Positions 5,394 to 54,329 of a stretch of 64,000 bases of DNA are shown here, in pieces. The notes under the pieces are model-generated. The model was not told the DNA's origin, searched no databases, and saw nothing but the letters and a program-made list of their open reading frames with translations. The position numbers and the translations under genes are program-made. The stretch is taken from NCBI GenBank assembly GCA_035299545.1, contig DATGWJ010000021.1:10090-74089 (forward strand), in the 5' to 3' direction. The stretch is from Minisyncoccota bacterium. Lineage in GTDB: Bacteria > Patescibacteriota > Minisyncoccia > Phycocordibacterales > UBA9973. Within the stretch, counting starts at the first letter, position 1; the number at the start of each line of letters is the position of its first letter.

Positions 5394-6425
5394 TTATGCA
5401 ATTGCGTATTGTCCCTGCTTGTTCTTCTTAAAATATTTAGGATTCTGTAAATTTACTAAAATAGTGTTCTTCTTTAGGTATCTTTCTTTCATAACTTGGT
5501 CAACAATTTCTTCTTTTACCATTGGTCCATTTTTCTTTAGAAGTTCTTTTATAACATCTCGGACTACACCAGTCTTGTAACCCCATTCAGATAAGGCATA
5601 TATACCTCTTCCAACAAGGACAAATCTTGGATCCTTTATGAGCTCATTATGACAAGTAGCAACATGACACTTCTTTCCGAAAGTATTTGAAACTGCCTTA
5701 GCTACTTCTCTGAAATGCATAGGACTGCCGTGCTTGCGCATCATTAAGAAAGCATAATCTTTCACTCCACGTGTCTTTATACTTGGTGATGATGCTCTAC
5801 CCCATTCTCCAAGTGGGTTTTTACTAATCTTTTTTGATATTGAGAGCCAGCGACGAGCAATCTCTTCATTTCTATATTGTTCAGATAAATCTTTTATCTC
5901 TTCAAGGAATCGAGCGATAAGCTCACTTTCTGAAATTAATTCATCATCTTTTAGATTTTCATAAATATTCTTGAGTGATTTGTGAATACGATCTGCAATT
6001 TCAGAATCAATACTCCATCGTGCTTTAAAATGATCGTCTTCTTTGTGTTTAGTAAACTCATTACTTAATGTTAAGAAGAGGTTTATGTGGTTCTGAGTCA
6101 ATTTATCTTTTGCTAAATGATTGAGAAGATCTTGTTCTGAAACTATTGCTCCTAGGGTGTGGACTAACTTTTTAAGCTCTTCGAAAACTTCCTTTTCATT
6201 TTTAAAGAATTCAGATTTGCGGATAAGAGATAATGCTGTGTTTTCTATTTGGCGGACACGTTCACGAGTAATACCATATTTCTTACCTATTGCTTCAAGA
6301 GTTCGGCGTTCTGTATCAGCAGTCAATCCAAATCGGTTAACAATGACCTCATAGGCGCGAGGAGGTAAATCTGCTAGTATCTTTTTAGTAATCTGCTTTG
6401 GTTTAAATGTAACTGTAGTAGCCAT
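5394..6425 (-). CDS. sigma-70 region-4 HTH / HARE-HTH domain protein
   Basis: N-terminal LPPRAYEVIVNRFGL...TLEAIGKKYGITRERVRQIENTAL matches sigma-70 region 4. C-terminal HFREVAKAV...RFVLVGRGIYALSEWG matches the HARE-HTH pattern (as in RNAP delta subunit). Confidence 0.5.
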   Translation of the reverse strand: MATTVTFKPKQITKKILADLPPRAYEVIVNRFGLTADTERRTLEAIGKKYGITRERVRQIENTALSLIRKSEFFKNEKEVFEELKKLVHTLGAIVSEQDLLNHLAKDKLTQNHINLFLTLSNEFTKHKEDDHFKARWSIDSEIADRIHKSLKNIYENLKDDELISESELIARFLEEIKDLSEQYRNEEIARRWLSISKKISKNPLGEWGRASSPSIKTRGVKDYAFLMMRKHGSPMHFREVAKAVSNTFGKKCHVATCHNELIKDPRFVLVGRGIYALSEWGYKTGVVRDVIKELLKKNGPMVKEEIVDQVMKERYLKKNTILVNLQNPKYFKKNKQGQYAIA

Positions 6426-6522
6426 AATGAATAAAAATTTAATCTAATTAATTTATATCTTTTACTATAATATCATTACTATTAAATAAAGTCAACCTTT
6501 TAGAAATACCCCAATAAAATCA

Positions 6523-8331
6523 TTACTTTTTAGACAGAGTCTTAGCTTTTGATCTTTCCATTTCTGTCAAAAGCTTCTTCCTTAAGCGGACACTTTTAGG
6601 GGTAATTTCAAGATATTCATCTTCTGCCATTATCTCTAATCCCCTTTCAATAGATAGCTTATACGGCGGTTTTACAATTATGGCCTCATCTGTCCCACTC
6701 GCCCGCATATTTGAAAGCTGTTTGCTTTTTGTAGGGTTTACACTCATTTCATCGCCTTTAAGTACATTACCTACAACCATCCCTTCATAGACTTCATCCC
6801 CGTGTTCAACATACAAAGTCCCCCTTTCTTGAAGAGTCCAAAGAGAGAATGCAATTACCTTGCCAGCGACCATAGAAGTCATAGAACCGACATCTCTTTT
6901 CTTTATTTCACCAGCAAAACTTTTGAATCCTATAAATCTCGATGCAATTATTCCTTCGCCTTTTGTATCTACGACAAACTGACCTCGGTATCCGAGTAAA
7001 CCTCTTGTTGGAATTTCTATTAAGATACGAACTATCCCTTCCTTCTCATGCATACTTGTGATAATTCCGCGACGTGCAGTTAACTTCTCTATCACTGCGC
7101 CGGAATATTCATTACGAACATCAATAGTTGCCTCTTCATATGGTTCCAATTTTTCTCCATTCTCTTCTTTTATAATTACATGCGGTTGAGATACTTGAAG
7201 TTCATAACCTTCACGACGCATATTTTCAAGAAGAACTGCAATGTGTAATTCGCCGCGTCCGTAAACAAGAAAACCTTCTTGAATTTCTTCTTGGTCTGGT
7301 GTATCAAAATTCACTCGGAGCCCAACGTTCATTTCTAATTCTTTTTCTAGTCGCTCTCTTATCTGTCTACTTGTGACATATTTTCCTTCACGTCCGGCAA
7401 AAGGAGAATCGTTAACTAAAAAGTTTAAAGAAATTGTCGGCTCATCTATGGCGATAGATGGAAGAGCTTCAGTGTTTGGATTATCACAAATTGTTTCTCC
7501 TATGTACACATCTGGAATACCAGCAATAATCGCAATATCTCCAGTATTTAATTCGCTCACCTCTTTTCTGTTTATACCTTCGAATGTAAACATCTTGGTA
7601 ATCTTTGCATTTCGTGATTTACCATTACTATCTTTCACTATTATTCCTGAACTTGTCTTTATAGAACCAGAGTAAGCACGGACAATAGCTAAACGTCCTA
7701 AGAAATTATCATATCCAAGATTAAAAACTTGAGCTCGGAAAGGATCTTCTTTGTTTACTGAAGCTTCTTTCACTTCTTTCAAAATCAAATCGAAAAGCGG
7801 AGTTAAATCTTTTGATTCATCTTCAAGGTTCATCTTTGCTATACCAAGTCGTCCGATAGCATACATATATTTGAAATTAATTTGCTCTTCTGTGGCTCCA
7901 AGCTCTAAGAAAAGTTCAAGTATTTCATCGTGAACGCGATGAGGATTTGCGGCTGGTTTATCTATTTTATTTATTATAACGATTGGTTTAAGTCCAAGTT
8001 CGAGAGATTTTTTGAGCACAAATCGTGTCTGAGGCATAGGCCCTTCTTGCGCATCAACTAACAGAAGCACTGAGTCGATAGCACGAAGAACACGCTCAAC
8101 TTCAGAACCGAAGTCAGCGTGACCTGGAGTGTCTACAATATTTATTTTTGTTCCCTTATAAATTACAGAAGTGTTTTTTGAATATATAGTAATACCCCGC
8201 TCAAGTTCAAGAGCGTTTGAATCCATAGTTACTCCTTCTTCCACCATTCCACACTGCTTCATCATCTGGTCAGTGAGAGTTGTCTTACCATGGTCCACGT
8301 GTGCAATTATAGCTATGTTTCTAATTTCCAT
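6523..8331 (-). CDS. typA: translational GTPase TypA/BipA
   Basis: NIAIIAHVDHGKTTL, DTPGHADF, 602 aa with a translation-factor domain order. Confidence 0.9.
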   Translation of the reverse strand: MEIRNIAIIAHVDHGKTTLTDQMMKQCGMVEEGVTMDSNALELERGITIYSKNTSVIYKGTKINIVDTPGHADFGSEVERVLRAIDSVLLLVDAQEGPMPQTRFVLKKSLELGLKPIVIINKIDKPAANPHRVHDEILELFLELGATEEQINFKYMYAIGRLGIAKMNLEDESKDLTPLFDLILKEVKEASVNKEDPFRAQVFNLGYDNFLGRLAIVRAYSGSIKTSSGIIVKDSNGKSRNAKITKMFTFEGINRKEVSELNTGDIAIIAGIPDVYIGETICDNPNTEALPSIAIDEPTISLNFLVNDSPFAGREGKYVTSRQIRERLEKELEMNVGLRVNFDTPDQEEIQEGFLVYGRGELHIAVLLENMRREGYELQVSQPHVIIKEENGEKLEPYEEATIDVRNEYSGAVIEKLTARRGIITSMHEKEGIVRILIEIPTRGLLGYRGQFVVDTKGEGIIASRFIGFKSFAGEIKKRDVGSMTSMVAGKVIAFSLWTLQERGTLYVEHGDEVYEGMVVGNVLKGDEMSVNPTKSKQLSNMRASGTDEAIIVKPPYKLSIERGLEIMAEDEYLEITPKSVRLRKKLLTEMERSKAKTLSKK

Positions 8332-17905: not shown

Positions 17906-18010
17906 AAACACGGCATATATAAAATTTTCTTCGCTTATCCCTCTCCGCTCGCAAGCTCGCTCCGGCGCGCCCACACCTACTCAGAAAATTTCATATATGC
18001 CGTGTTTTTT
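17906..18010 (+). repeat. composite hairpin element, copy A: AT-rich 25-bp stem enclosing a 52-nt GC-rich core
   Basis: Stem AAACACGGCATATATAAAATTTTCT pairs with AGAAAATTTCATATATGCCGTGTTT (one mismatch). Core TCGCTTATCCCTCTCCGCTCGCAAGCTCGCTCCGGCGCGCCCACACCTACTC. A-run before and T-run after. Confidence 0.8.
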
Positions 18011-18056
18011 ATATGGATATTTTCTTTGTATTTGACTTATATGCTAAAATAAGAAT

Positions 18057-18983
18057 ATGTACGAATTAATCATTTTAGGAGGTGGTCCTGCTGGCACAGC
18101 TGCCGCAGTATATGCTGCCCGCAAACAATTAAAAACAGCTATTATCACAAGTGATTTCGGTGGCCAATCTATGGTCTCTGAGAAAATCTTTAACTGGATC
18201 GGTACTCCTGAAATACCTGGAGTAGATCTAGCTTCTAATTTCAAGAAACACGTTCTTTATTACAAAGGACCATATTTAGATGTAATAGAAGGAGAAAAGA
18301 TTACTTCAGTAACAAAAAATGATAATGTAATTACAGTTAAGTCCGAATCTGGTAAAGAATACACTTCGAAAGCTCTTATCATAGCAACTGGTAGTGGACG
18401 CAGAAAATTGGAAGCAATCAACGCAGATACTTTTGAAAACAAAGGAATTACTTACTGCGCATCTTGCGATGGTCCTTTGTTTGCGGACCAAGATGTCGTT
18501 GTTATAGGTGGAGGCAATGCTGCATTTGAGACATCCGCTCAACTTCTCGCCTATTGCAAGAGTGTAACTTTAATACACAGAAGTGAAAACTTCCGTGCAG
18601 ATGAGATAACAGTTAAGAAAATTTTTGAAAATCCTAAATTCAAAGCAATAACAAATTCCGAAGTTGTGAGAGTAGATGGTGAACAGTTTGTAAGCTCTAT
18701 TACTTATAAAAATAAAATTACAGGAGAAACTGGAACTCTTCCTACAGCAGGTATATTCGTAGAGATAGGACAAATACCAAACATTGATTTCGTAAAAGAT
18801 ATAGTCAAAATAGATGATTTTGGCAAGATTGCTGTTGATCCTATGAACCAGATGACTAGTGTAGAAGGTATCTGGGCGGCAGGTGATTGTACAAATGGCA
18901 GATATCATCAGAACAACATCGCTGCTGGTAACGGAGTCGTCGCTCTTGAAGACGCTTACCTTTGGATACAAAAGAATAAATAA
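18057..18983 (+). CDS. trxB: thioredoxin-disulfide reductase
   Basis: GGGPAG FAD motif, redox CASCDG, AAGDCT. Confidence 0.85.
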   Translation: MYELIILGGGPAGTAAAVYAARKQLKTAIITSDFGGQSMVSEKIFNWIGTPEIPGVDLASNFKKHVLYYKGPYLDVIEGEKITSVTKNDNVITVKSESGKEYTSKALIIATGSGRRKLEAINADTFENKGITYCASCDGPLFADQDVVVIGGGNAAFETSAQLLAYCKSVTLIHRSENFRADEITVKKIFENPKFKAITNSEVVRVDGEQFVSSITYKNKITGETGTLPTAGIFVEIGQIPNIDFVKDIVKIDDFGKIAVDPMNQMTSVEGIWAAGDCTNGRYHQNNIAAGNGVVALEDAYLWIQKNK

Positions 18984-18990
18984 GAAACTA

Positions 18991-19101
18991 AAAAACAGGG
19001 TATATATAAAATTTTCTTCGCTTATCCCTCTCCGCTCGCAAGCTCGCTCCGGCGCGCCCACACCTACTCAGAAAATTTCATATATACCCTGTTTCTGTTT
19101 T
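18991..19101 (+). repeat. composite hairpin element, copy B: core identical to copy A, outer stem with compensatory changes
   Basis: The core is 52/52 identical to copy A. The stem AAACAGGGTATATAT.../...ATATATACCCTGTTT carries paired substitutions relative to copy A. Confidence 0.8.
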
Positions 19102-19858
19102 ATATAGTTTGATTTACTAAAATTCCCTCCAATATTTCTAATTCAGATTTTGAATTTGGTTGGAAAATTTCCATCATATTTGAAAGTGGGACACCTTCTA
19201 TTTCCAATCCTTGCTCTTGCGCTAATTTAATTAAGTCAGGAAGATAATATTCTTTTTGAGCATTTTCATTCTTTATCTTATTTATATTATTCCATAACCA
19301 TTCAGCATCAAAAGCATAAATTGCAGGATTAACTTCTTTTATTTCTTTTTCTTCGTCGTTTGCATCTTTAAATTCCACAATTTTCACAATCTTACCATTC
19401 GCATCCCGAACAATTCTCCCTAAATTATAAGCTCCCACTCTCCAATCTTTAAAATCAGGCAATGACACTGTCCCCATTGTAATAACTGCTTTGGACTTTT
19501 CATGAGCATCGATTACATTTGTAATTGTCTCTTTAGAAATGAGTGGTTGATCAGTTGAAATAACAAAGATTGTTTTATGATCAGGGTGAACTTGTGGTTT
19601 TGCAGACATAACTGCATGCCCTGTGCCAAGTTGCTCTTCTTGGTGGGCATATATATTATCCATACCAAAAACTTCAAATATTCTTTCTTTTTTATGTCCC
19701 ACGACAATCACTGGCTTTATAGATAAATCAATTGTCGCTAAAGTATCTAAAATGTGCCTTAAAAATGGTTTCCCTCGAAGCATTGCAAGAGCCTTAGGGT
19801 CGTCGGATTCCATTCTTTTTCCTTTTCCTGCAGCTAAAATAATTATTTGTGTGCTCAT
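19100..19858 (-). CDS. GlmU N-terminal-like sugar-1-phosphate nucleotidyltransferase (no LbH acetyltransferase domain)
   Basis: LAAGKGKRM and LGTGHAV motifs. Confidence 0.65.
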
Positions 19859-20755: not shown

Positions 20756-20791
20756 TTATATAGTATACAACAAATAGTAAACCCTTCGCTC

Positions 20792-20820
20792 TTGACAAAA
20801 TGAGGCACTTACAATATACT
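20792..20820 (+). promoter_or_regulatory. near-consensus sigma-70 promoter TTGACA-17 nt-TATACT
   Basis: TTGACA at 20792-20797 and TATACT at 20815-20820, with exactly 17 nt between them. Confidence 0.55.
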
Positions 20821-20827
20821 GTGTTCT

Positions 20828-20936
20828 GCTTGGAGAGTTTAGAGAGTATCTCTTCAAAGCCGTTGTTCATTTGTGCTTTGTTCATGTTTTTAGGGTTAAG
20901 GTAAGCGGCTTTCGTTTGACGAAAGCCGCTTTTTTG
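20828..20936 (+). ncRNA. candidate small RNA of about 110 nt (promoter to intrinsic terminator, no convincing ORF)
   Basis: Predicted start just after the TATACT box. It ends at hairpin AAGCGGCTTTCGTTTGACGAAAGCCGCTTTTTTG (20903-20936). No plus-strand gene follows. Confidence 0.35.
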
Positions 20937-20939
20937 TTG

Positions 20940-21237
20940 TCTAAAAAGACAAATAAAAAGCCTCCACGATCAAACGTAGAGGCACATGTAAGGTTAATTA
21001 CCTAGGGAAAGTTTCGTTCAGGTATACGCGCCTACACATTGAACAAATGAAGAAAATTAGATCGGGAAGGTGTACATTGTACCCTATCGCCTTATTTTCC
21101 ATTTCCCAGTGGAACCTTGACTTAATGAGTATATTACTCGGAGGAGGAGGAATGTCAAGGGGAAATTTTTAGTTATCAAGTTCTACAACAAGAGATACTT
21201 CCAGTCTCTTCCCCTTAATGGTATTTAAATATATTGG
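20940..21237 (-). ncRNA. structured 3' region after the RT gene (candidate RT-associated ncRNA)
   Basis: 300 nt with no ORF between the RT stop and a minus-strand terminator (CCTCTACG-TTTGAT-CGTGGAGG plus T run, about 20945-20990). Contains nested helices (AAGGGGA...TCCCCTT; CCTTGAC...GTCAAGG) and a CCTCCTCCTCC tract. Confidence 0.3.
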
Positions 21238-22644
21238 TTAAATTTTTAAGTTATATATATTATTGACTCTATTTATGTGTTTTTGTATAAATTTATATGA
21301 GATAGCTTGTGAAGCTAAAAATCTTTTATGGTGAAATAGAAAATCTGTATGTAAACATTCTTTTGTAATATCTTTTAATAAAGCAAGAAAATACTTTTTT
21401 TGTTTAGTATCTATATTAGAGTATATTTTTTTATAGTCTTTAAAATCAGGAGGGTGGGAAACCAAAAAATCTTTTGTCAAAATAAACTTTATAAGGTCAT
21501 CAATTTTCTTCATCTTTCCATCAGCTTTCTTGAGAGAACTTAGTATAGCTCTAACTAAAGTTCTACCTCCAGACCTCAGGTCTTGCTTGTTCTTTAGATA
21601 AAACTCAATTGCTTTATCTATGTTTTTTGAAGAAACAACATTATTGCTTCCTCCTAGTTGCATAAGTATTTCAAATGCAAAATAATTATTAAATTCAGAT
21701 TTTTTTCTTACATGAACTTTTTTTTGATTCAAATTCAAACCTATCCTCATTAAATAACTAGAGGATCTTGCAATAATGTTTTTTATAACTTCTGTTGATT
21801 TAGCGAATACTACTTGGTCGTCTGCATAACGGAAATATTTTGCTCCTAATTTATCACATAATTCTTTCATTTTTTTGTCATAACTTTGCAGATAGAAGTT
21901 AGCTAGAATACGGGAACATTCTCCAAAGAGATCTTGTGGTAAACCAGCATTTTGATGTACATAAAAATTATTATGCCTATTCCAATATTTAAGAAAATGA
22001 AAAAGTAGATATACAACTTCATTATCTTTTGACTCTATATTGCTTCTTATTATATATTCCAGATGATCCAATCTTACTGAATCATAAAAGTTTGCAATAT
22101 CCAATTCTGCCACATAAGAATTTACATAATCATCAACAGAATATTTATAAATTTTGTTTGTAAAATCACCCCAATTAGCTGCCCATGCTTGTGGGTTAAA
22201 ATTAGTAGATATTTCGTATTCTCCTGACTGTATAAATGTATAATAATCTCCTTCAAATTCTTGTACAGAGATAAATTCTTTATCATAGCTAGATAGATCG
22301 ACTTCTTCCTCTATCTTTGTTTCCCCATTTAAAGACCACCCACCATAAGTTCCCTCTACTCTGTTTTTTGCTATGTATTTTTCTAATTTTCTTGTACAGT
22401 AAAAATAAACACAAAGATCTTCCAATTTAAATACAGGAATTACCCTTAAAACCTGGTTACCCTTATTAGAAATTAAATAATTTTGTGGTGGAGAGGGATA
22501 GTATTCTCTGCTTTTTATTTTTATATACAGATTATTAATTAATCTTTCTTTATTAATTGAGGTATATGGTATTAAAGTATCTTTAAGGTTATGTCTCCAA
22601 AACCCCTTATCTAAACATATTTCCTTAAATTCCTTTTCATTCAT
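21238..22644 (-). CDS. reverse transcriptase (unclassified, 468 aa with a long C-terminal extension)
   Basis: RT motifs 1-7: YPSPPQNYLISNKGNQVLRVIPVF; AELDIANFYDSVRLDHL; GLPQDLFGECSRILANFYL; YFRYADDQVVFA; RIGLNLNQKKVHV. No maturase or endonuclease domain. Confidence 0.85.
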   Translation of the reverse strand: MNEKEFKEICLDKGFWRHNLKDTLIPYTSINKERLINNLYIKIKSREYYPSPPQNYLISNKGNQVLRVIPVFKLEDLCVYFYCTRKLEKYIAKNRVEGTYGGWSLNGETKIEEEVDLSSYDKEFISVQEFEGDYYTFIQSGEYEISTNFNPQAWAANWGDFTNKIYKYSVDDYVNSYVAELDIANFYDSVRLDHLEYIIRSNIESKDNEVVYLLFHFLKYWNRHNNFYVHQNAGLPQDLFGECSRILANFYLQSYDKKMKELCDKLGAKYFRYADDQVVFAKSTEVIKNIIARSSSYLMRIGLNLNQKKVHVRKKSEFNNYFAFEILMQLGGSNNVVSSKNIDKAIEFYLKNKQDLRSGGRTLVRAILSSLKKADGKMKKIDDLIKFILTKDFLVSHPPDFKDYKKIYSNIDTKQKKYFLALLKDITKECLHTDFLFHHKRFLASQAISYKFIQKHINRVNNIYNLKI

Positions 22645-23625: not shown

Positions 23626-23662
23626 TTTTGTGACCCTAGGGGTTAATAATTGGGGACGGATT
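23626..23662. repeat. degenerate copy of the tRNA-Glu 3' half (att-like footprint), copy 1
   Basis: TTTTGTGACCCTAGGGGTTAATAATTGGGGACGGATT versus the tRNA plus-strand AATTTGTGACCCTACCGGGAATCGAACCCGGATT. Preceded by hairpin GACTGGAGCAGTCCAGTC plus T run, as the tRNA is. Confidence 0.6.
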
Positions 23663-23812
23663 GTGGAGGATATAAAGGTATTTATAAGCTATGTTGATTT
23701 CTTGGTATATAAACACAATAGAAAGCTTGACATATCTACTTTTTTGTGCTAATCTCTAGAAAAGAACTTATTTGAAAATAAACTAATATATTCACTAATA
23801 AATGACAAAGGT

Positions 23813-24577
23813 ATGGGACACAGAACACTTAAAAGGGTGCCATTAAATTTTAATGCACCACTAAACAAAGTTTGGAAGGGATATTTAAATCCGTTTCCAG
23901 GACCACGAGAATGTAATCATTGCAAAGGTAGTGGGTATAATAATGCTACTAGGAAAATTGCAGATGATTATTATGGCCATTACTCTCAAAGAAGTCGTCG
24001 CTGGTGTGATAACATTACACAGGATGAAGTGCAAGCCCTCGTTGATGCTGGTCGTCTTTGGGATTTTACCAGAGTTCCCCTTAATGAAAAACAACTGAAA
24101 GATGTTTTGCCTAATGGCTGGCTTCCGTATGATAATGGAAAAATTCCTACAGCAGAAGAAGTTAACGCTTGGAGTGTTAAAGGTATTGGCCACGACACTT
24201 TTAATAAATCTATTTTAATTGAAACAAGAGCCAAACGTTTACATGTCTTCGGTTATTGTCCTCATTGTAAAGGAAAAGGAGAAACAAAACTTCCAAGGAA
24301 GATGAAAAAACGTTATCAAAACTGGCGGAAACATGATCCTCCACAAGGAGAAGGATTCCAGTTGTGGTCAACTACAACAGGAGGATCACCATTTAGCCCT
24401 GTTTTTGAAAATGCTGAACAACTTGCAGTATGGTGTGCAGATAATGCTACTATTTTTGCAGATTATAAACTAACTGCCAAAGAGTGGCTCCAGGTATTTG
24501 CAGATGAACATGTTCTTGATCTAGAAAGTTCCTGTATAATTGTAGTGAAAAAAGAAGCAGAATTTTGCTTAAATTAA
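23813..24577 (+). CDS. hypothetical protein with two CxxCxGxG zinc-finger motifs
   Basis: CNHCKGSGY and CPHCKGKGE. Own TTGACA-17 nt-TAATCT promoter at about 23737-23765 and a hairpin terminator at 24601-24632. Confidence 0.55.
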   Translation: MGHRTLKRVPLNFNAPLNKVWKGYLNPFPGPRECNHCKGSGYNNATRKIADDYYGHYSQRSRRWCDNITQDEVQALVDAGRLWDFTRVPLNEKQLKDVLPNGWLPYDNGKIPTAEEVNAWSVKGIGHDTFNKSILIETRAKRLHVFGYCPHCKGKGETKLPRKMKKRYQNWRKHDPPQGEGFQLWSTTTGGSPFSPVFENAEQLAVWCADNATIFADYKLTAKEWLQVFADEHVLDLESSCIIVVKKEAEFCLN

Positions 24578-24663: not shown

Positions 24664-24701
24664 AATTTGTGACCCTAGAGGTTAGTAGTTGGGGACAGAT
24701 T
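24664..24701. repeat. degenerate copy of the tRNA-Glu 3' half (att-like footprint), copy 2
   Basis: AATTTGTGACCCTAGAGGTTAGTAGTTGGGGACAGATT, followed by a TTGACA-17 nt-TATAGT promoter for the next ORF. Confidence 0.6.
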
Positions 24702-24786
24702 TTAGAAAATATAAGGGATTTTGGGTTTTATATTGACAATTAAATTTAAATCTGTTATAGTGTAATAAATTTTAAATTATACAATA

Positions 24787-25155
24787 ATGAGCAATAAAAT
24801 TGTGCACACAGTAATGACACAGGAAGGTCCCCGGTACAGAGTATGGTCAGATAATAGTGATAGATATGTAAGTCAAATCTTAACAGAAGATGAGCTTATG
24901 TTATTTTCAATTTTAATGGAAATAGAACCACTTCTGATAAATCATTTCTATGATCCCAAATATACTGGGGTAGTACTTGGTCACTGGATTCAGCGAGGAG
25001 AAGTTCTTAAGGATTGGAAGGTTGAATCAGAATTTATACCTGCTGATGATAAAGAGCAGGAAAAATATTCCAATATGGCAAAATCACAAAAAGAATTTCT
25101 ATTAAAAGCTGCCAATCTCTGGGAAGAATTCTTTCTTAATGGAAACATTAAGTGA
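24787..25155 (+). CDS. hypothetical protein (122 aa)
   Basis: ORF with an upstream consensus-like promoter; no motif recognised. Confidence 0.45.
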   Translation: MSNKIVHTVMTQEGPRYRVWSDNSDRYVSQILTEDELMLFSILMEIEPLLINHFYDPKYTGVVLGHWIQRGEVLKDWKVESEFIPADDKEQEKYSNMAKSQKEFLLKAANLWEEFFLNGNIK

Positions 25156-48791: not shown

Positions 48792-50021
48792 TTAATTTAC
48801 AAACGTTAGTGCTTTACCTACTTGGTTTCCACGGCCGGTTCGGCCGATACGGTGAACATAATCTTCATAAGTAGCAGGGATTTCGAAATTAATAACATGA
48901 GTTACATTTGGTATATCGAGTCCGCGCGCAGCTACGTCTGTAGCCACAAGTATCTGACTGTGATTATCGCGAAATGCTTTCAATGCATTTGCACGTTTAT
49001 TCTGATTTTTATCTCCGTGAATAGATTCAGCTTTAAAACCTTGTCTTACAAGTGTCTGACAAAGTTTTTCCACTCCGTGTTTTGTTCTACCAAAAATAAG
49101 AACTTTAGAAAATTCTTTACTTGATAAAAGTGTACTTAAGTGCTCAACTTTATCTTTACCTTGTGGAACACGCACAATATCTTGGTCGACATTGCGAGCT
49201 GTCTCCCCTGTTTTCACTGAAATTTTTTCTGGATTAGTTAGAAATTCTTTTATCAACTTATCAATTTCACTTGTGATTGTCGCAGAGAATAAAAGTGTCT
49301 GACGATTCGGAGCCATTTGCGACATTACAAATCGCATATCATCTACGAAGCCCATATCGAGCATTCTGTCCGCTTCATCAAGTACGATAGTACGAAATTC
49401 TGCTAAGCGTAGAACTTTCCTATCTACTAGGTCACGTAACCTCCCAGGAGTTCCTATCACAATATTATGAGATCTTTTAAGTCCATAAATCTGATTAGAA
49501 ATTCCCATTCCGCCAACGCAACACACAGAAAAGATTCGGAGATCTCCCCGGAAGCCCATAAGTTCTTGGTTGATCTGCATTGCTAATTCGCGAGTTGGCA
49601 CTATTACTAGAACTTTCTCTTGTGGATTATTTAATATTTTATTAATAGATGGAATCAGAAAAGCAGCAGTCTTACCCGTACCAGTATTTGCAATACCGAT
49701 AACATCACGACCAGAAAGAACGTGAGGGATTGCCATATCTTGAATTGGAGTTGGGTCGACATAACCTTTCTTTGAAATATTTGTTTTGATTGCAGTGTGA
49801 ATATTAAAATCTGCAAATTTATTTACTGGAATATAAGGAGCAGATTCGATAATTGGATCCGCTTTCTTAATGAAACGAGAATGACTAATAGAACTGCCAC
49901 CGCCAAAACGCTTACCAGACCTTGAACGTCCAAAATTTTTTCTGCCACGAAAATTGTTTTTAGATCCACTAGAATGTGAACCGCCGCCTTGGCTTCTGCC
50001 TCGGCTTGATTGTTTATACAT
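48792..50021 (-). CDS. DEAD-box ATP-dependent RNA helicase with a Gly/Arg-rich N-terminal tail
   Basis: Q-motif region; GIANTGTGKTAAF; DEAD; SAT; HRIGRTGRG. Confidence 0.9.
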   Translation of the reverse strand: MYKQSSRGRSQGGGSHSSGSKNNFRGRKNFGRSRSGKRFGGGSSISHSRFIKKADPIIESAPYIPVNKFADFNIHTAIKTNISKKGYVDPTPIQDMAIPHVLSGRDVIGIANTGTGKTAAFLIPSINKILNNPQEKVLVIVPTRELAMQINQELMGFRGDLRIFSVCCVGGMGISNQIYGLKRSHNIVIGTPGRLRDLVDRKVLRLAEFRTIVLDEADRMLDMGFVDDMRFVMSQMAPNRQTLLFSATITSEIDKLIKEFLTNPEKISVKTGETARNVDQDIVRVPQGKDKVEHLSTLLSSKEFSKVLIFGRTKHGVEKLCQTLVRQGFKAESIHGDKNQNKRANALKAFRDNHSQILVATDVAARGLDIPNVTHVINFEIPATYEDYVHRIGRTGRGNQVGKALTFVN

Positions 50022-50262
50022 AATTTTTTACCTAATCTATTAAAATAAAAGTAAGACGGATTAGGACCTTCCCCTCTAGTTTCCAATAATGACTATCACG
50101 AGGGATAAGGCGTTATGTCGCGCAACATGCGCAAGAAACCAATGAGAATACAACTTACTATATAAGTATATAATTATTCTTTAATTTTGTCAAGTTTAGT
50201 GAATCTATCTCCACTAACTAAAACTCCCCTTGAACCGAGTTCAAGGGGAGTTTGTTTATAAA

Positions 50263-50403
50263 TTACTTTCCTCTTTTCTTTACTGATTTTTTCTTGTCTT
50301 TCTTGTTTGCTAACATTTCTTTCTTTGCAAGAAGACGTTTTGCTGTTTTCTTAGAATGTTTTGATTTCTTATGAGGATGCAATGATGTTGCTCTTTTTGC
50401 CAT
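50263..50403 (-). CDS. candidate 46-aa highly basic protein (MAKRATSLHPHKKSKHSKKTAKRLLAKKEMLANKKDKKKSVKKRGK)
   Basis: ATG to TAA ORF absent from the track (under 60 aa). Followed by hairpin AAACTCCCCTTGAACCGAGTTCAAGGGGAGTTT plus T run on the minus strand. Possibly a ribosomal-like or nucleic-acid-binding micro-protein. Confidence 0.3.
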   Translation of the reverse strand: MAKRATSLHPHKKSKHSKKTAKRLLAKKEMLANKKDKKKSVKKRGK

Positions 50404-50512
50404 ATAAATTTTTATCTATTATTAATATATTTTTATTATACTTTATATTATAAATATTACAAAGAAAAATACTCACAGCTCGCAGAAGCGAACTAGAGTA
50501 TTTCTCTTTTAA

Positions 50513-50713
50513 TTACGCACGAGATACTTTTGTAGCCGCTGGGCCTTTTTCGCTTTCCATTATTTCAAAAGTAACTGTGTCTCCGACTTGAAGCTCGTCA
50601 AATTTGACTCCGACAAGTTCTTTCGAATGAAAGAAAAGGTCTTTCGTCTCACCTTCGCGAGCGATAAAACCGAATCCTTTACTCGTAAGTGTTTTTATTG
50701 TTCCTGTCATCAT
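50513..50713 (-). CDS. cspA: cold-shock protein (CspA family)
   Basis: GTIKTLTSKGFGFIAREGETKDLFFH (RNP1/RNP2). The long 5' UTR is typical of csp genes. Confidence 0.85.
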   Translation of the reverse strand: MMTGTIKTLTSKGFGFIAREGETKDLFFHSKELVGVKFDELQVGDTVTFEIMESEKGPAATKVSRA

Positions 50714-50879
50714 ACGATTATATTTGTTTGATTATTTTGATTGAAACTTCGACATGGTTCCTTTGTGCCTAAACACTATTTCAGTATAACACACTTCCTA
50801 TTTTATACATATTATTTAAAATTTAAACATATAAAAACACTAATCATCTCTTTAGAGATTAGTGTTTTTGTCTTATTTT

Positions 50880-52712: not shown

Positions 52713-53231
52713 ATGGTTCATAGAATTCTTCCTCTAAAATTCTTTTATCGCAATACAAAGATAATAGCGAAGGAGCTGTTAGGAAAATATCTAGTTCGTA
52801 AATCAAAAGGAAAAAATTTGGCTTTTATGATAACAGACGTAGAAGTCTATGACGGCTTTAATGATTTAGCTTCTCATGCATCAAAGAAAAGAACCCCTCG
52901 AAATGAAGTAATGTTTCAATCCGGAGGCAGATGGTATATTTATTTTGTTTATGGAATGCACAGTATGCTAAATATCGTTACTCGCGAGAAGGATTACCCT
53001 GCTGCTATTTTAATACGAGGATTAGAAGGAATATCGGGACCAGGCAAGGTGACTAAAATACTAGGCATAGATAAGTCGCTCAATAAACTACCCGCGAATA
53101 GAAAATCTGGACTTTGGATTGAAGATCGCGGGATTCACATATCACCCAAAAGTATAAAAAAATCTCCACGAATAGGCATTAATTTCGCTGGCAAAATTTG
53201 GGCAACCAAACCCCTACGATACTATATATAA
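52713..53231 (+). CDS. mpg: DNA-3-methyladenine glycosylase (Mpg/AAG family)
   Basis: AKELLGKYLV, DVEVYDGFNDLASHA, GGRWYIYFVYGMHSMLNIV, AAILIRGLE, GPGKVTKILGI. Confidence 0.8.
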   Translation: MVHRILPLKFFYRNTKIIAKELLGKYLVRKSKGKNLAFMITDVEVYDGFNDLASHASKKRTPRNEVMFQSGGRWYIYFVYGMHSMLNIVTREKDYPAAILIRGLEGISGPGKVTKILGIDKSLNKLPANRKSGLWIEDRGIHISPKSIKKSPRIGINFAGKIWATKPLRYYI

Positions 53232-53232
53232 G

Positions 53233-53275
53233 AAAAAACCCGAACTTCCAAGAAGTTCGGGTTTTAATAATTTTG
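53233..53275. terminator. intrinsic terminator AAAACCCGAACTTCCAAGAAGTTCGGGTTTT
   Basis: Perfect stem plus T run after mpg. Confidence 0.7.
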
Positions 53276-53712
53276 CTTAATTGAGGCTCTGCTTCCTCTA
53301 GGCATCTCCATTTGTAATATTAAACGGGGACAAACTTACTCGGCGTTGTTTTATTTGTGTAGGCCGAGAAACTAGGCAAAATACATTGCATTAATTAAAG
53401 AACTGCACGTCAGGGTGGTAGATTCATAGATGCTTCATTTTTAGGTAAACATCCGCACTAAAACCCAAAGGCGATTTTATGGTGTGTATACTAGCACACC
53501 GTAATTATTTATGCAATAGAACAATACTAGTGGGTTCCATTCTCCGATATTCATATGTTTCTGCGGCGTCACGTCGTAATAGCACACTTAAGACCCAGTT
53601 AACTTAGTAGCCTCCATTTTACGGTTTCCGTCGGAAAGGTTACTGACCCTATATCCTTTAGTTCGACTAGTATTGTTTTGTCTTATTATTAAATTAGCAT
53701 TTATTAAAACAA
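53276..53712. ncRNA. 437-nt ORF-free, GC-enriched region between two terminators (candidate structured RNA; strand unknown)
   Basis: No ORF of 60 aa or more. Long-range palindromic pairing AACAATACTAGT(53519-53530)/ACTAGTATTGTT(53659-53670). Local hairpins GGTGTGTATACTAGCACACC, TCGGC...GCCGA. Ends at terminator AAAGGCCTGCTCATAGGAGTAAGGCCTTT. Confidence 0.25.
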
Positions 53713-53729
53713 AAATAAAGGCCTTACTC

Positions 53730-54329
53730 CTATGAGCAGGCCTTTATATTTATTTTATTTATCAGCTTGGGTATTTCTTCCCAAGAGTTCATCCTTATGG
53801 ACCCTTTTGGTAAAGGCGCCCTATTCCACGGACAGTCATACACTACAACAGGGATTCCAACATTAGTGCAATCAGCAACATGCGAAAGGTCATCATCTAT
53901 AATAACATCCATATTTTGACTTCTACACATTTCTGATTTTTTTATTTTAACTCCAGAAGACCCATAAGAATTTGTGTGATAAATTTCCGAGAAAACGTTC
54001 GGGAAATATTTCTCTACCCATTCTTCGGTCTGTTTTGTTAATGCATAGATTCTACCTGTAACAATAGAAAGTTTATGACCCTCATTTAATAGGAAATTCA
54101 TCGCGGATTGAGAACCCGGTATAGGAGCAACTTCTTTAAAATAATTAGTTTCAAAGAATTCAACTAATTTTTGAACTTCTTGTTCCTTTGTTCCTCCCCA
54201 CACTTCACGATACCAACAAGAAAAGAAATCCTCTCTTTTTAAAGTTGTCCCATATTTATCATTATGGAATAAGATAATATTGCTAATTAAATCCGCAATA
54301 GTATCATCGACATCTACTGCTATATGCAT
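53730..54329 (-). CDS. 5'(3')-deoxyribonucleotidase (NT5C-family HAD phosphatase), array gene e
   Basis: HIAVDVDDTIADL (DxDxT), NT5C family layout. Confidence 0.65.
   Translation of the reverse strand: MHIAVDVDDTIADLISNIILFHNDKYGTTLKREDFFSCWYREVWGGTKEQEVQKLVEFFETNYFKEVAPIPGSQSAMNFLLNEGHKLSIVTGRIYALTKQTEEWVEKYFPNVFSEIYHTNSYGSSGVKIKKSEMCRSQNMDVIIDDDLSHVADCTNVGIPVVVYDCPWNRAPLPKGSIRMNSWEEIPKLINKINIKACS

Follow-up and report, generated by a model that had tools for sequence, protein, structure and literature searches.

A conserved, unannotated non-coding locus between the Mag and NT5C genes of a Minisyncoccota bacterium, with two candidate divergent small RNAs

What is the role of a 437-nt segment without an evident gene (positions 53276-53712) in a 64,000-nt stretch of DNA from a Minisyncoccota bacterium (contig DATGWJ010000021.1; hereafter, the window), in which most intergenic gaps are short? 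The segment separates two convergent genes, those for DNA-3-methyladenine glycosylase (Mag; stop at 53231) and for a 5'(3')-deoxyribonucleotidase-like protein (NT5C; stop at 53730), and the flanking proteins have their best matches in metagenome-assembled genomes (MAGs) of Paceibacterota/Parcubacteria, members of the candidate phyla radiation (CPR). The comparisons described here indicate that the segment is real, conserved and unannotated, and make it a candidate for a new, narrowly distributed non-coding RNA (ncRNA).

Conservation of the spacer between Mag and NT5C

The distance between the stop codons of Mag and NT5C is 498 nt, which ranks third by size among the 72 gaps in a crude map of open reading frames (ORFs) of the window; the median gap in this map is about 55 nt, and 41 of the 72 are shorter than 100 nt. 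The only short ORFs inside the segment encode 42 aa (plus strand, 53479-53607) and 36 aa (minus strand, 53477-53587), and both are disrupted by 1-nt indels and an early stop in the related locus L070 (see below), where the shorter ORFs are broken as well. An earlier reading that was based on the letters of the DNA and their ORFs (hereafter, the sequence-only reading) described the segment as a long ORF-free spacer, and this description holds. The same reading called the segment GC-enriched and compositionally distinct. Its GC content of 37.8% (window, 34.2%) is indeed at the top of the intergenic range here (21-38%; the exception is the tRNA-Val/tRNA-Ser gap, with 43%), and the enrichment is concentrated in two modules (44.7% in 53283-53376 and 41.4% in 53512-53680; the middle has 35.6% and the right tail 10.8%). 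Overall distinctness, however, was overstated, given that the segment falls at the 81st percentile among all 437-nt windows.

To gauge the conservation of the segment, we used the one relative with a syntenic locus, L070 (L069 and L071-L074 are truncated copies of it), the Mag protein of which is 81% identical to that of the window. In the genes for Mag and for the 299-aa protein encoded upstream, the window and L070 are identical at 56% of third codon positions and at 93-95% of second codon positions. In the same comparison, positions 53283-53344 are identical throughout (62/62), positions 53512-53680 are 93% identical, the middle (53377-53511) is 75% identical with 11 gap columns, and the AT-rich right tail is 56% identical. 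Two of the 1-nt indels are inside the right module, and the remainder are in the middle and the tail. By this comparison, the segment is conserved about as tightly as the codon positions that determine amino acids. Because this identity is far above that of third codon positions and both short ORFs are broken in L070, we conclude that the locus is non-coding and subject to strong purifying selection.

A decaying pseudogene or a neutral spacer would fit the lack of an ORF and of a database match, but this reading is already contradicted by about 230 nt at 93-100% identity where neutral sites are at 56%, and we consider it practically untenable. The sequence-only reading had named a lack of both expression and conservation in relatives as the outcome that would reduce the segment to such a relic; strong conservation is seen in L070. 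The proposal of an independent non-coding locus made in the same reading is thus upheld, with conservation far above that of neutral sites and no conserved reading frame, and we regard it as very probable that the segment is a functional non-coding locus that belongs to no described family. Short Logan contigs from the groundwater or sediment runs SRR5823600-602 are identical to the window across this locus, and the same runs also yield a contig with an SmpB protein identical to one from a Paceibacterota third-party annotation (TPA) MAG; the contigs in question are L001, L067, L068 and L087.

Two modules and a predicted pair of divergent RNAs

The idea of a single 437-nt unit, implicit in the sequence-only reading, is not supported as it stands: the segment consists of two conserved modules with a weaker middle between them, only the left module recurs elsewhere, and the strand signals of the modules differ. 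The coordinates of all features are collected in Table 1.

Table 1. Predicted features of the locus and the adjacent genes (window coordinates)
Feature	Coordinates	Strand	Remarks
Mag, DNA-3-methyladenine glycosylase	52713-53231	+	PF02245
T1 hairpin	53235-53265	both	14-bp stem, 3-nt loop; terminator-like on both strands; -19.4 to -19.9 kcal/mol
RNA-L (candidate)	~53481 to ~53235 (53232..53481)	-	~250 nt; predicted ends
HP0	53283-53298	-	small hairpin GAGG...CCUC holding GGAAGCAGAGCC; invariant in L070
Left-module core	53305-53343	-	HP1, linker and start of HP2; 39 nt invariant in three lineages
HP1	53305-53330	-	imperfect 9+9 palindrome around TAATAT; invariant
Linker	53331-53338	-	8 nt (CAAACUUA on +, UAAGUUUG on -); invariant
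HP2	53339-53368	-	6-bp stem CUCGGC/GCCGAG, variable 18-21-nt loop; two-sided pair change
P(+), candidate RNA-R promoter	53395-53424	+	TTAAAG-18-(TGg)TAGATT; predicted start ~53431
P(-), candidate RNA-L promoter	53516-53488	-	TTGCAT-17-(TGc)TAGTAT; predicted start ~53481
RNA-R (candidate)	~53431 to ~53750 (53431..53755)	+	~320 nt; predicted ends
Right module	53520-53677	+	158-nt multi-branch domain closed by 12-bp stem 53520-31/53666-77
T2 hairpin	53718-53746	both	-15.6 kcal/mol on +, -18.4 on -; U-rich tails on both strands
NT5C, 5'(3')-deoxyribonucleotidase-like	53730-54329	-	PF06941

The left module is predicted to form three hairpins, HP0, HP1 and HP2. A pattern-based scan of metagenomes with a 34-nt degenerate, transition-tolerant pattern derived from the invariant left part identified one further locus, L078 (the same as L079), on a distant Paceibacterota contig on which the NT5C orthologue is only 50% identical to the window NT5C protein. 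About 75 nt of the left module are matched there (88.6% identity over 70 nt in BLAST), and 39 consecutive nucleotides are invariant. The closing pair of HP2 is C-G in the window and U-A in L078, that is, both sides change, and the HP2 loop differs in all three sequences. At the position of HP0, L078 contains a different hairpin, AAGUU-GGCGG-AACUU, as read from the alignment; this replacement involves a 1-nt register shift and was not counted as covariation. The left module is present in a single copy in the 64-kb window, and covariance models of this block and of the right module detected no further copies of either in 746 kb of Patescibacteria loci. On this sequence evidence, the left module is an independent, very conserved unit that is present sporadically. 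For the right module, the best local alignment with L078 scores 43, no better than shuffles (36 +/- 5).

In L078, the block sits in the spacer between ftsH and smpB, where ftsH (minus strand) is followed by a terminator hairpin at 5565-5595, by the block and, after a further 170 nt or so, by smpB (plus strand), the transfer-messenger RNA (tmRNA) gene and a serine recombinase gene. The best promoter-like site of this spacer is on the minus strand (TTGACT-17-TATCAT, 5806-5778; 10/12 plus an extended TG) and points through the block to the terminator at 5595-5565. Because no plus-strand gene precedes this terminator, it can serve only a minus-strand transcript, and the L078 copy looks like a self-contained cassette of about 210 nt that consists of a promoter, an RNA and a terminator. 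A link between the block and smpB was considered and rejected: six related smpB loci (L084-L090), with SmpB proteins 81-90% identical to that of L078, all lack the block and have shorter spacers. The large serine recombinase gene (6415-8327; Resolvase, Recombinase and Zn_ribbon_recom domains) is immediately 3' of the tmRNA gene, a position that suggests an element integrated at ssrA.

The right module is built on a long-range pairing with arms about 130 nt apart that had been noticed in the sequence-only reading and that stands as a perfect 12-nt inverted repeat, AACAATACTAGT (53520-53531) and ACTAGTATTGTT (53666-53677), the arms of which enclose 134 nt. Among 5000 mononucleotide shuffles, 33 (0.7%) contained a perfect inverted repeat of at least 12 nt, and in L070, 11 of the 12 pairs are kept and one outer A-U pair is added. 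Within the domain closed by this helix, the predicted hairpins are GCGGCG-UCA-CGUCGU and, inside a stem formed by UUAGUAGCCU and AGGUUACUGA, ACGG-UUU-CCGU. The single-sequence folding z score of the right module is -3.5 on the plus strand vs -0.4 on the minus strand in the window and -2.0 vs -1.3 in L070, and the alifold z score is -3.0 vs -1.1. Substitutions between the right modules of the window and L070, the only locus with a homologue, are mixed: the loop UUU is changed to CUC, one stem change is compatible with wobble pairing, and others affect further stem positions and junctions. In the middle, neither strand has a conserved structure (structure conservation index 0.12-0.17; z > 0), and a plus-strand hairpin at 53477-53504 of the window is not kept in L070.

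Counting pairs in the three-sequence alignment, we found that 93% of the cells are paired and that four pairs change on both sides (1.7 expected), a count that was reached in 15 of 500 shuffles; this support for the helices is suggestive, if thin. A long-range minus-strand helix between CCUUUGGGU and GCCUAGAGG was kept out of the model, given that it shares 4 nt with HP0 and that both of its strands are invariant.

Hairpins are present on both sides of the segment, as the sequence-only reading stated, but they belong to the neighbouring genes, are probably bidirectional and do not isolate the segment. Since T1 directly follows Mag and T2 holds the NT5C stop codon, both terminators are shared with the neighbours rather than private to the segment. 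On the plus strand, T1 would terminate Mag, and on the minus strand, with the tail UUUUUUCUU, it would terminate the left RNA proposed below; the homologue of T1 in L070 scores as a terminator on the minus strand only. The NT5C stop codon (TAG, 53730-53732) is in the T2 loop, and the last codons of this gene form the 5' arm of the stem. T2 can thus be taken as NT5C's own terminator, on the minus strand, that on the plus strand would also serve the proposed right RNA; it contains an internal loop and was not scored by the terminator scanner.

Promoter-like hexamers are found at aligned positions on both strands of the window and L070, on conserved islands of the middle. The site aligned with P(+) in L070, TTGAAA-17-TAGATT (9/12), is the sole promoter match of the scanner in that locus, and the site aligned with P(-) is TTGCTA-17-(TGa)TAGTAT. 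Canonical sigma-70 promoters exist in this organism, for example, TTGACA-17-TATACT (50193-50165) upstream of a helicase gene. In that case, a leader of some 140 nt lies between the promoter and the DEAD-box helicase gene (48792-50021).

Taken together, these features lead us to favour, tentatively and a little short of calling it probable, a model with two small back-to-back ncRNA genes that are transcribed divergently; the strands, the transcript ends and the split into two genes are what we infer from the sequence. Under this model, both RNAs would start in the less conserved middle and run apart, such that their first 50 nt or so would overlap and be complementary. RNA-L would comprise a variable 5' part followed by HP2, the linker, HP1, HP0 and the terminator T1 shared with Mag, that is, three stem-loops arranged around an invariant 8-nt single-stranded linker. 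RNA-R would begin with a part that can pair with the 5' end of RNA-L, followed by the 158-nt multi-branch domain and T2 shared with NT5C. RNA-L is placed on the minus strand because, in L078, the minus-strand promoter leads through the block to the terminator, and because the left hairpin of L070 is terminator-like only on that strand. RNA-R is placed on the plus strand because the folding z scores favour this strand in both species, and because the only consensus promoter of L070 points into the domain. Two divergent RNAs would explain the conservation of two separate modules, the middle that is unstructured and yet not neutral, the L078 cassette and the differing strand signals of the modules.

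As a working guess, both RNAs may be trans-acting or protein-binding structured RNAs, with the invariant linker and the HP1 loop of RNA-L as a candidate recognition surface. The overlapping 5' ends and interleaved promoters could couple the expression of RNA-L and RNA-R, through transcriptional interference or antisense pairing, and the CU-rich, anti-Shine-Dalgarno-like strings UCUCC and CCUCC in RNA-R could matter functionally. A bolder version, which we put forward as speculation and would not expect to hold in full, sees in RNA-L an undescribed, extremely conserved Paceibacterota RNA cassette, the sporadic presence of which would hint at horizontal movement or at a selfish or defence-type role. 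In the lineage of the window, this cassette would be joined, by overlapping promoters and complementary 5' ends, to a second new structured RNA of about 300 nt in head-to-head orientation, and the two would act as a protein-free, all-RNA regulatory switch.

Several observations weigh against the model with two divergent RNAs. Folding leaves the strand of the left module undecided: single-sequence z scores are slightly better on the plus strand, and alifold scores are slightly better on the minus strand (-2.7 vs -2.0 for the 5' block). The entire proposed RNA-R span has an alifold z score of only -1.4, and neither strand of the whole L070 sequence folds better than shuffled sequences do. Covariation is thin, with three of the four two-sided changes falling within the terminator, and the carriers are few, two lineages for the whole locus and three for the left module. 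The promoters were called by their match to a consensus in AT-rich DNA: within the segment, the scanner reported no site in the window, and P(-) scores 7-8 of 12 plus the TG (7 in the window), which is under the scanner threshold. Finally, the plus strand of HP1 carries an invariant extended -10-like element, TGTAATATT (53314-53321), and a plus-strand transcript that starts within the left block is conceivable.

The latter element also speaks for the implicit model of the sequence-only reading, namely, one structured plus-strand ncRNA of about 420 nt that extends from the left module, or from a point before it, to T2. The z scores for the whole segment likewise favour the plus strand (-2.85 on the plus strand vs -0.35 on the minus strand in the window; alifold, -2.0 vs -0.5). 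Nevertheless, the conserved sequence lies just 17 nt from T1, a gap into which no promoter fits, and a start past TAATAT would exclude HP0 and the 5' half of HP1, both of which are either invariant or structurally replaced. In L078, a plus-strand transcript would lack a terminator target upstream and continue into smpB. With the additional difficulties of a middle that lacks conserved structure and a whole L070 sequence that folds no better than shuffles, a single RNA seems unlikely to us.

Another interpretation places the conserved feature at the DNA level, with the imperfect palindrome of HP1, TCTCCATTT-GTAATATT-AAACGGGGA, acting like a recombinase core, an operator that overlaps a -10 element or a hairpin at an HUH nick site. 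The string TAATATTAA may be likened to the TAATATTAC nonanucleotide of rolling-circle HUH systems. Invariance of 39 nt, loop included, in three lineages, a palindrome that is equally good on both strands, and sporadic presence in different genomic contexts would all be expected of a DNA site. Yet no recombinase, Rep or transposase gene is found nearby in the window, and the serine recombinase of L078 is about 1 kb away, beyond smpB and the tmRNA gene. The compensatory change in HP2 and the replacement of HP0 by another hairpin point to folded single strands, the 64 kb hold one copy and another 746 kb from related loci hold none, and the right module would be left unexplained. Hence we consider a DNA-level site distinctly improbable.

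Known RNA families and other identities

The sequence-only reading had suggested a search of Rfam, for SRP RNA, RNase P RNA, tmRNA and 6S RNA in particular, as the check that could expose a known RNA. No clean match emerged: at E<=10, there are zero Rfam 15 matches on 53266-53717, and at the gathering threshold, the whole window yields only three tRNA matches, all outside the segment. Searches at E<=10 of 53100-53900 and of L078 (5598-5810) returned only terminator-driven or chance matches far below the gathering threshold. ARAGORN predicts neither a tRNA nor a tmRNA in the segment. For tmRNA, the permuted form included, neither ARAGORN nor RF00023 gives anything in the segment, and the tmRNA of L078 was readily detected by both (114 bits). 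With regard to the signal recognition particle (SRP) RNA, the sequence-only reading had judged the likeness to helix 8 to be poor, and we concur: GGAAGCAGAGCC is present on the minus strand (53285-53296), no SRP model scores at E<=10, and this string is not conserved in L078.

Closer consideration is due to the possibility that the minus strand encodes a housekeeping RNA that has diverged strongly, with RNase P RNA as the most plausible candidate. The length (about 430 nt) fits, and, by eye, the minus strand contains GCCUAGAGGAA...GCAGAGCCUCAAUUA, which is similar to GCCUAGAUGAA...ACAGAACCCGGCUUA of E. coli, with GCAGAGCCUCAAUUA as a string like conserved region V (CR-V). Upstream, also by eye, AAAAUGGAGGC could pair with GCCUC-AAUU to form a helix like P4, which in bacterial RNase P RNA is built from CR-I and CR-V and nested within P1/P2. 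Diverged RNase P RNAs are known in the CPR, where 10 of 35 circular genomes lack an RNase P match at default cut-offs (PMC8172020), and the segment is like those RNAs in its similar length, its clade, its omission by standard annotation and its CR-V-like string. However, it differs from them in showing no covariance-model signal (RF00010 and RF00011 are silent on both strands at E<=10, even with the search narrowed to 452 nt), in a helix topology that is incompatible, with the putative P4 crossing the well-supported 12-bp helix, and in the lack of conservation in L078 of the CR-V-like GCAGAGCCUCAAUUA, the stretch singled out by the sequence-only reading, next to a block that is conserved there. 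Moreover, shuffled sequences fold as well as the right module does on its minus strand, and the core alone recurs in L078 as a unit of about 210 nt. The element is also absent at the same position in the close relative L075, although it could lie elsewhere in that genome. In our view, an RNase P RNA is very unlikely.

Patescibacteria also have tRNA genes with group I introns, some of which escape both RF00028 and ARAGORN (PMC13011429). The segment is like these split genes in its phylum, in its length of about 400 nt and in being an RNA locus that is unannotated, but unlike them in that it has no exon halves, T-arm, acceptor pairing or RF00028 signal. A tRNA gene with a group I intron was rejected: ARAGORN with introns allowed finds no tRNA, no T-arm-like sequence with a G53-C61 pair is present, RF00028 is silent, and strings that by eye resemble the group I R and S elements are in the wrong order. 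Among the other candidates, a T-box is not supported given that AGGGUGGUA is not conserved in L070, a dif/Xer site lacks TTATG-type arms, and a CsrA-type sponge is not indicated by the GGA count, which is not above expectation. A mobile repeat, such as a miniature inverted-repeat transposable element (MITE), a repetitive extragenic palindrome (REP) or an insertion sequence (IS) remnant, is disfavoured by the single copy in the 64-kb window and none in 746 kb of related loci.

Beyond L070 and L078, the searches were negative. With blastn, the segment has no match in the phage and plasmid collections, and four pattern scans of IMG/VR returned nothing or chance matches. None of the 65 Mag loci from GTDB species representatives has nucleotide similarity to the segment, and two contexts of NT5C homologues (L076 and L077) lack the element. 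In L075, the closest Mag relative (84% aa identity), a different convergent gene is 33 nt downstream of Mag, with no element.

Other elements of the window and relation to known systems

Several further regions of the window are worth recording. A 468-aa reverse transcriptase (RT) is encoded at 21238-22644 on the minus strand (PF00078 RVT_1, E = 2.7e-13; YADD motif), and the 482 nt on its 3' side (20756-21237; 37.8% GC, no ORF longer than 63 aa) could be an RT-associated ncRNA or template region of the retron, diversity-generating retroelement (DGR) or abortive infection (Abi) type. No repeat of at least 40 nt similar to a DGR template repeat/variable repeat (TR/VR) pair was found within 17-28 kb, besides two pairs of repeats. 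The first pair, at 17906-18023 and 18993-19110, is formed by 91% identical copies of an element, about 100-118 nt long, on either side of an ORF (18057-18983). This element is a long hairpin with AT-rich arms of about 25 nt and a GC-rich core, CGCTTATCCCTCTCCGCTCGCAAGCTCGCTCCGGCGCGCCCACACC, and its arms show compensatory differences (CACGGCA/TGCCGTG vs CAGGGTA/TACCCTG). The second is a 57-nt direct repeat, 81% identical, at 23627-23683 and 24666-24722; each copy is upstream of a plus-strand gene (23813-24577 and 24787-25155), and the repeat may serve both genes as a common leader or regulatory element.

The largest ORF-poor stretch of the window is at 61239-62197 (959 nt, 34% GC, no ORF longer than 66 aa), where Rfam has no match at the gathering threshold. 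An 858-nt apparent gap at 50022-50879 (minus strand) holds two small genes that were overlooked by the 70-aa ORF filter, one for a cold-shock-type protein with a GFGFI motif (about 50513-50713) and one for a 46-aa lysine-rich protein (about 50263-50403).

Genomes of CPR/Patescibacteria are smaller than 1 Mb, with little spare DNA, and their ncRNA content is poorly charted; published work shows that some tRNA genes, and even RNase P RNA, have been overlooked in this group. In this setting, some 450 nt that have stayed at 93-100% identity, against 56% at neutral sites, must do something. If the model with two divergent RNAs is true, this clade would gain two structured RNAs of its own, in an unusual head-to-head arrangement that involves no protein; for now, the wider importance of the locus is limited by its narrow distribution and by the absence of a functional lead.

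Among known systems, the segment can be compared with orphan bacterial genes for small or medium-sized ncRNAs, which occupy intergenic islands and combine a sigma-70 promoter with stem-loops and an intrinsic terminator. It differs from these in its lack of a match to any Rfam 15 family and in its very narrow distribution, but is like them in being free-standing between protein genes, with a GC content above the intergenic background, and in its conserved stems with variable loops and a Rho-independent terminator, with the L078 copy appearing as a complete cassette.

Type I toxin-antitoxin loci include divergent RNAs with complementary 5' regions, as in tisB/istR-1, shoB/ohsC and zor/orz. Such a locus was rejected as an identity for the segment, in which all short ORFs are disrupted in L070 and no small ORF is conserved on either strand, such that the defining toxin is missing. 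The proposed layout would nonetheless be similar: two short head-to-head units in one island, with interleaved promoters, sporadic presence among relatives and a complementary 5' overlap of about 50 nt that is predicted from the conserved promoter-like sites on opposite strands.

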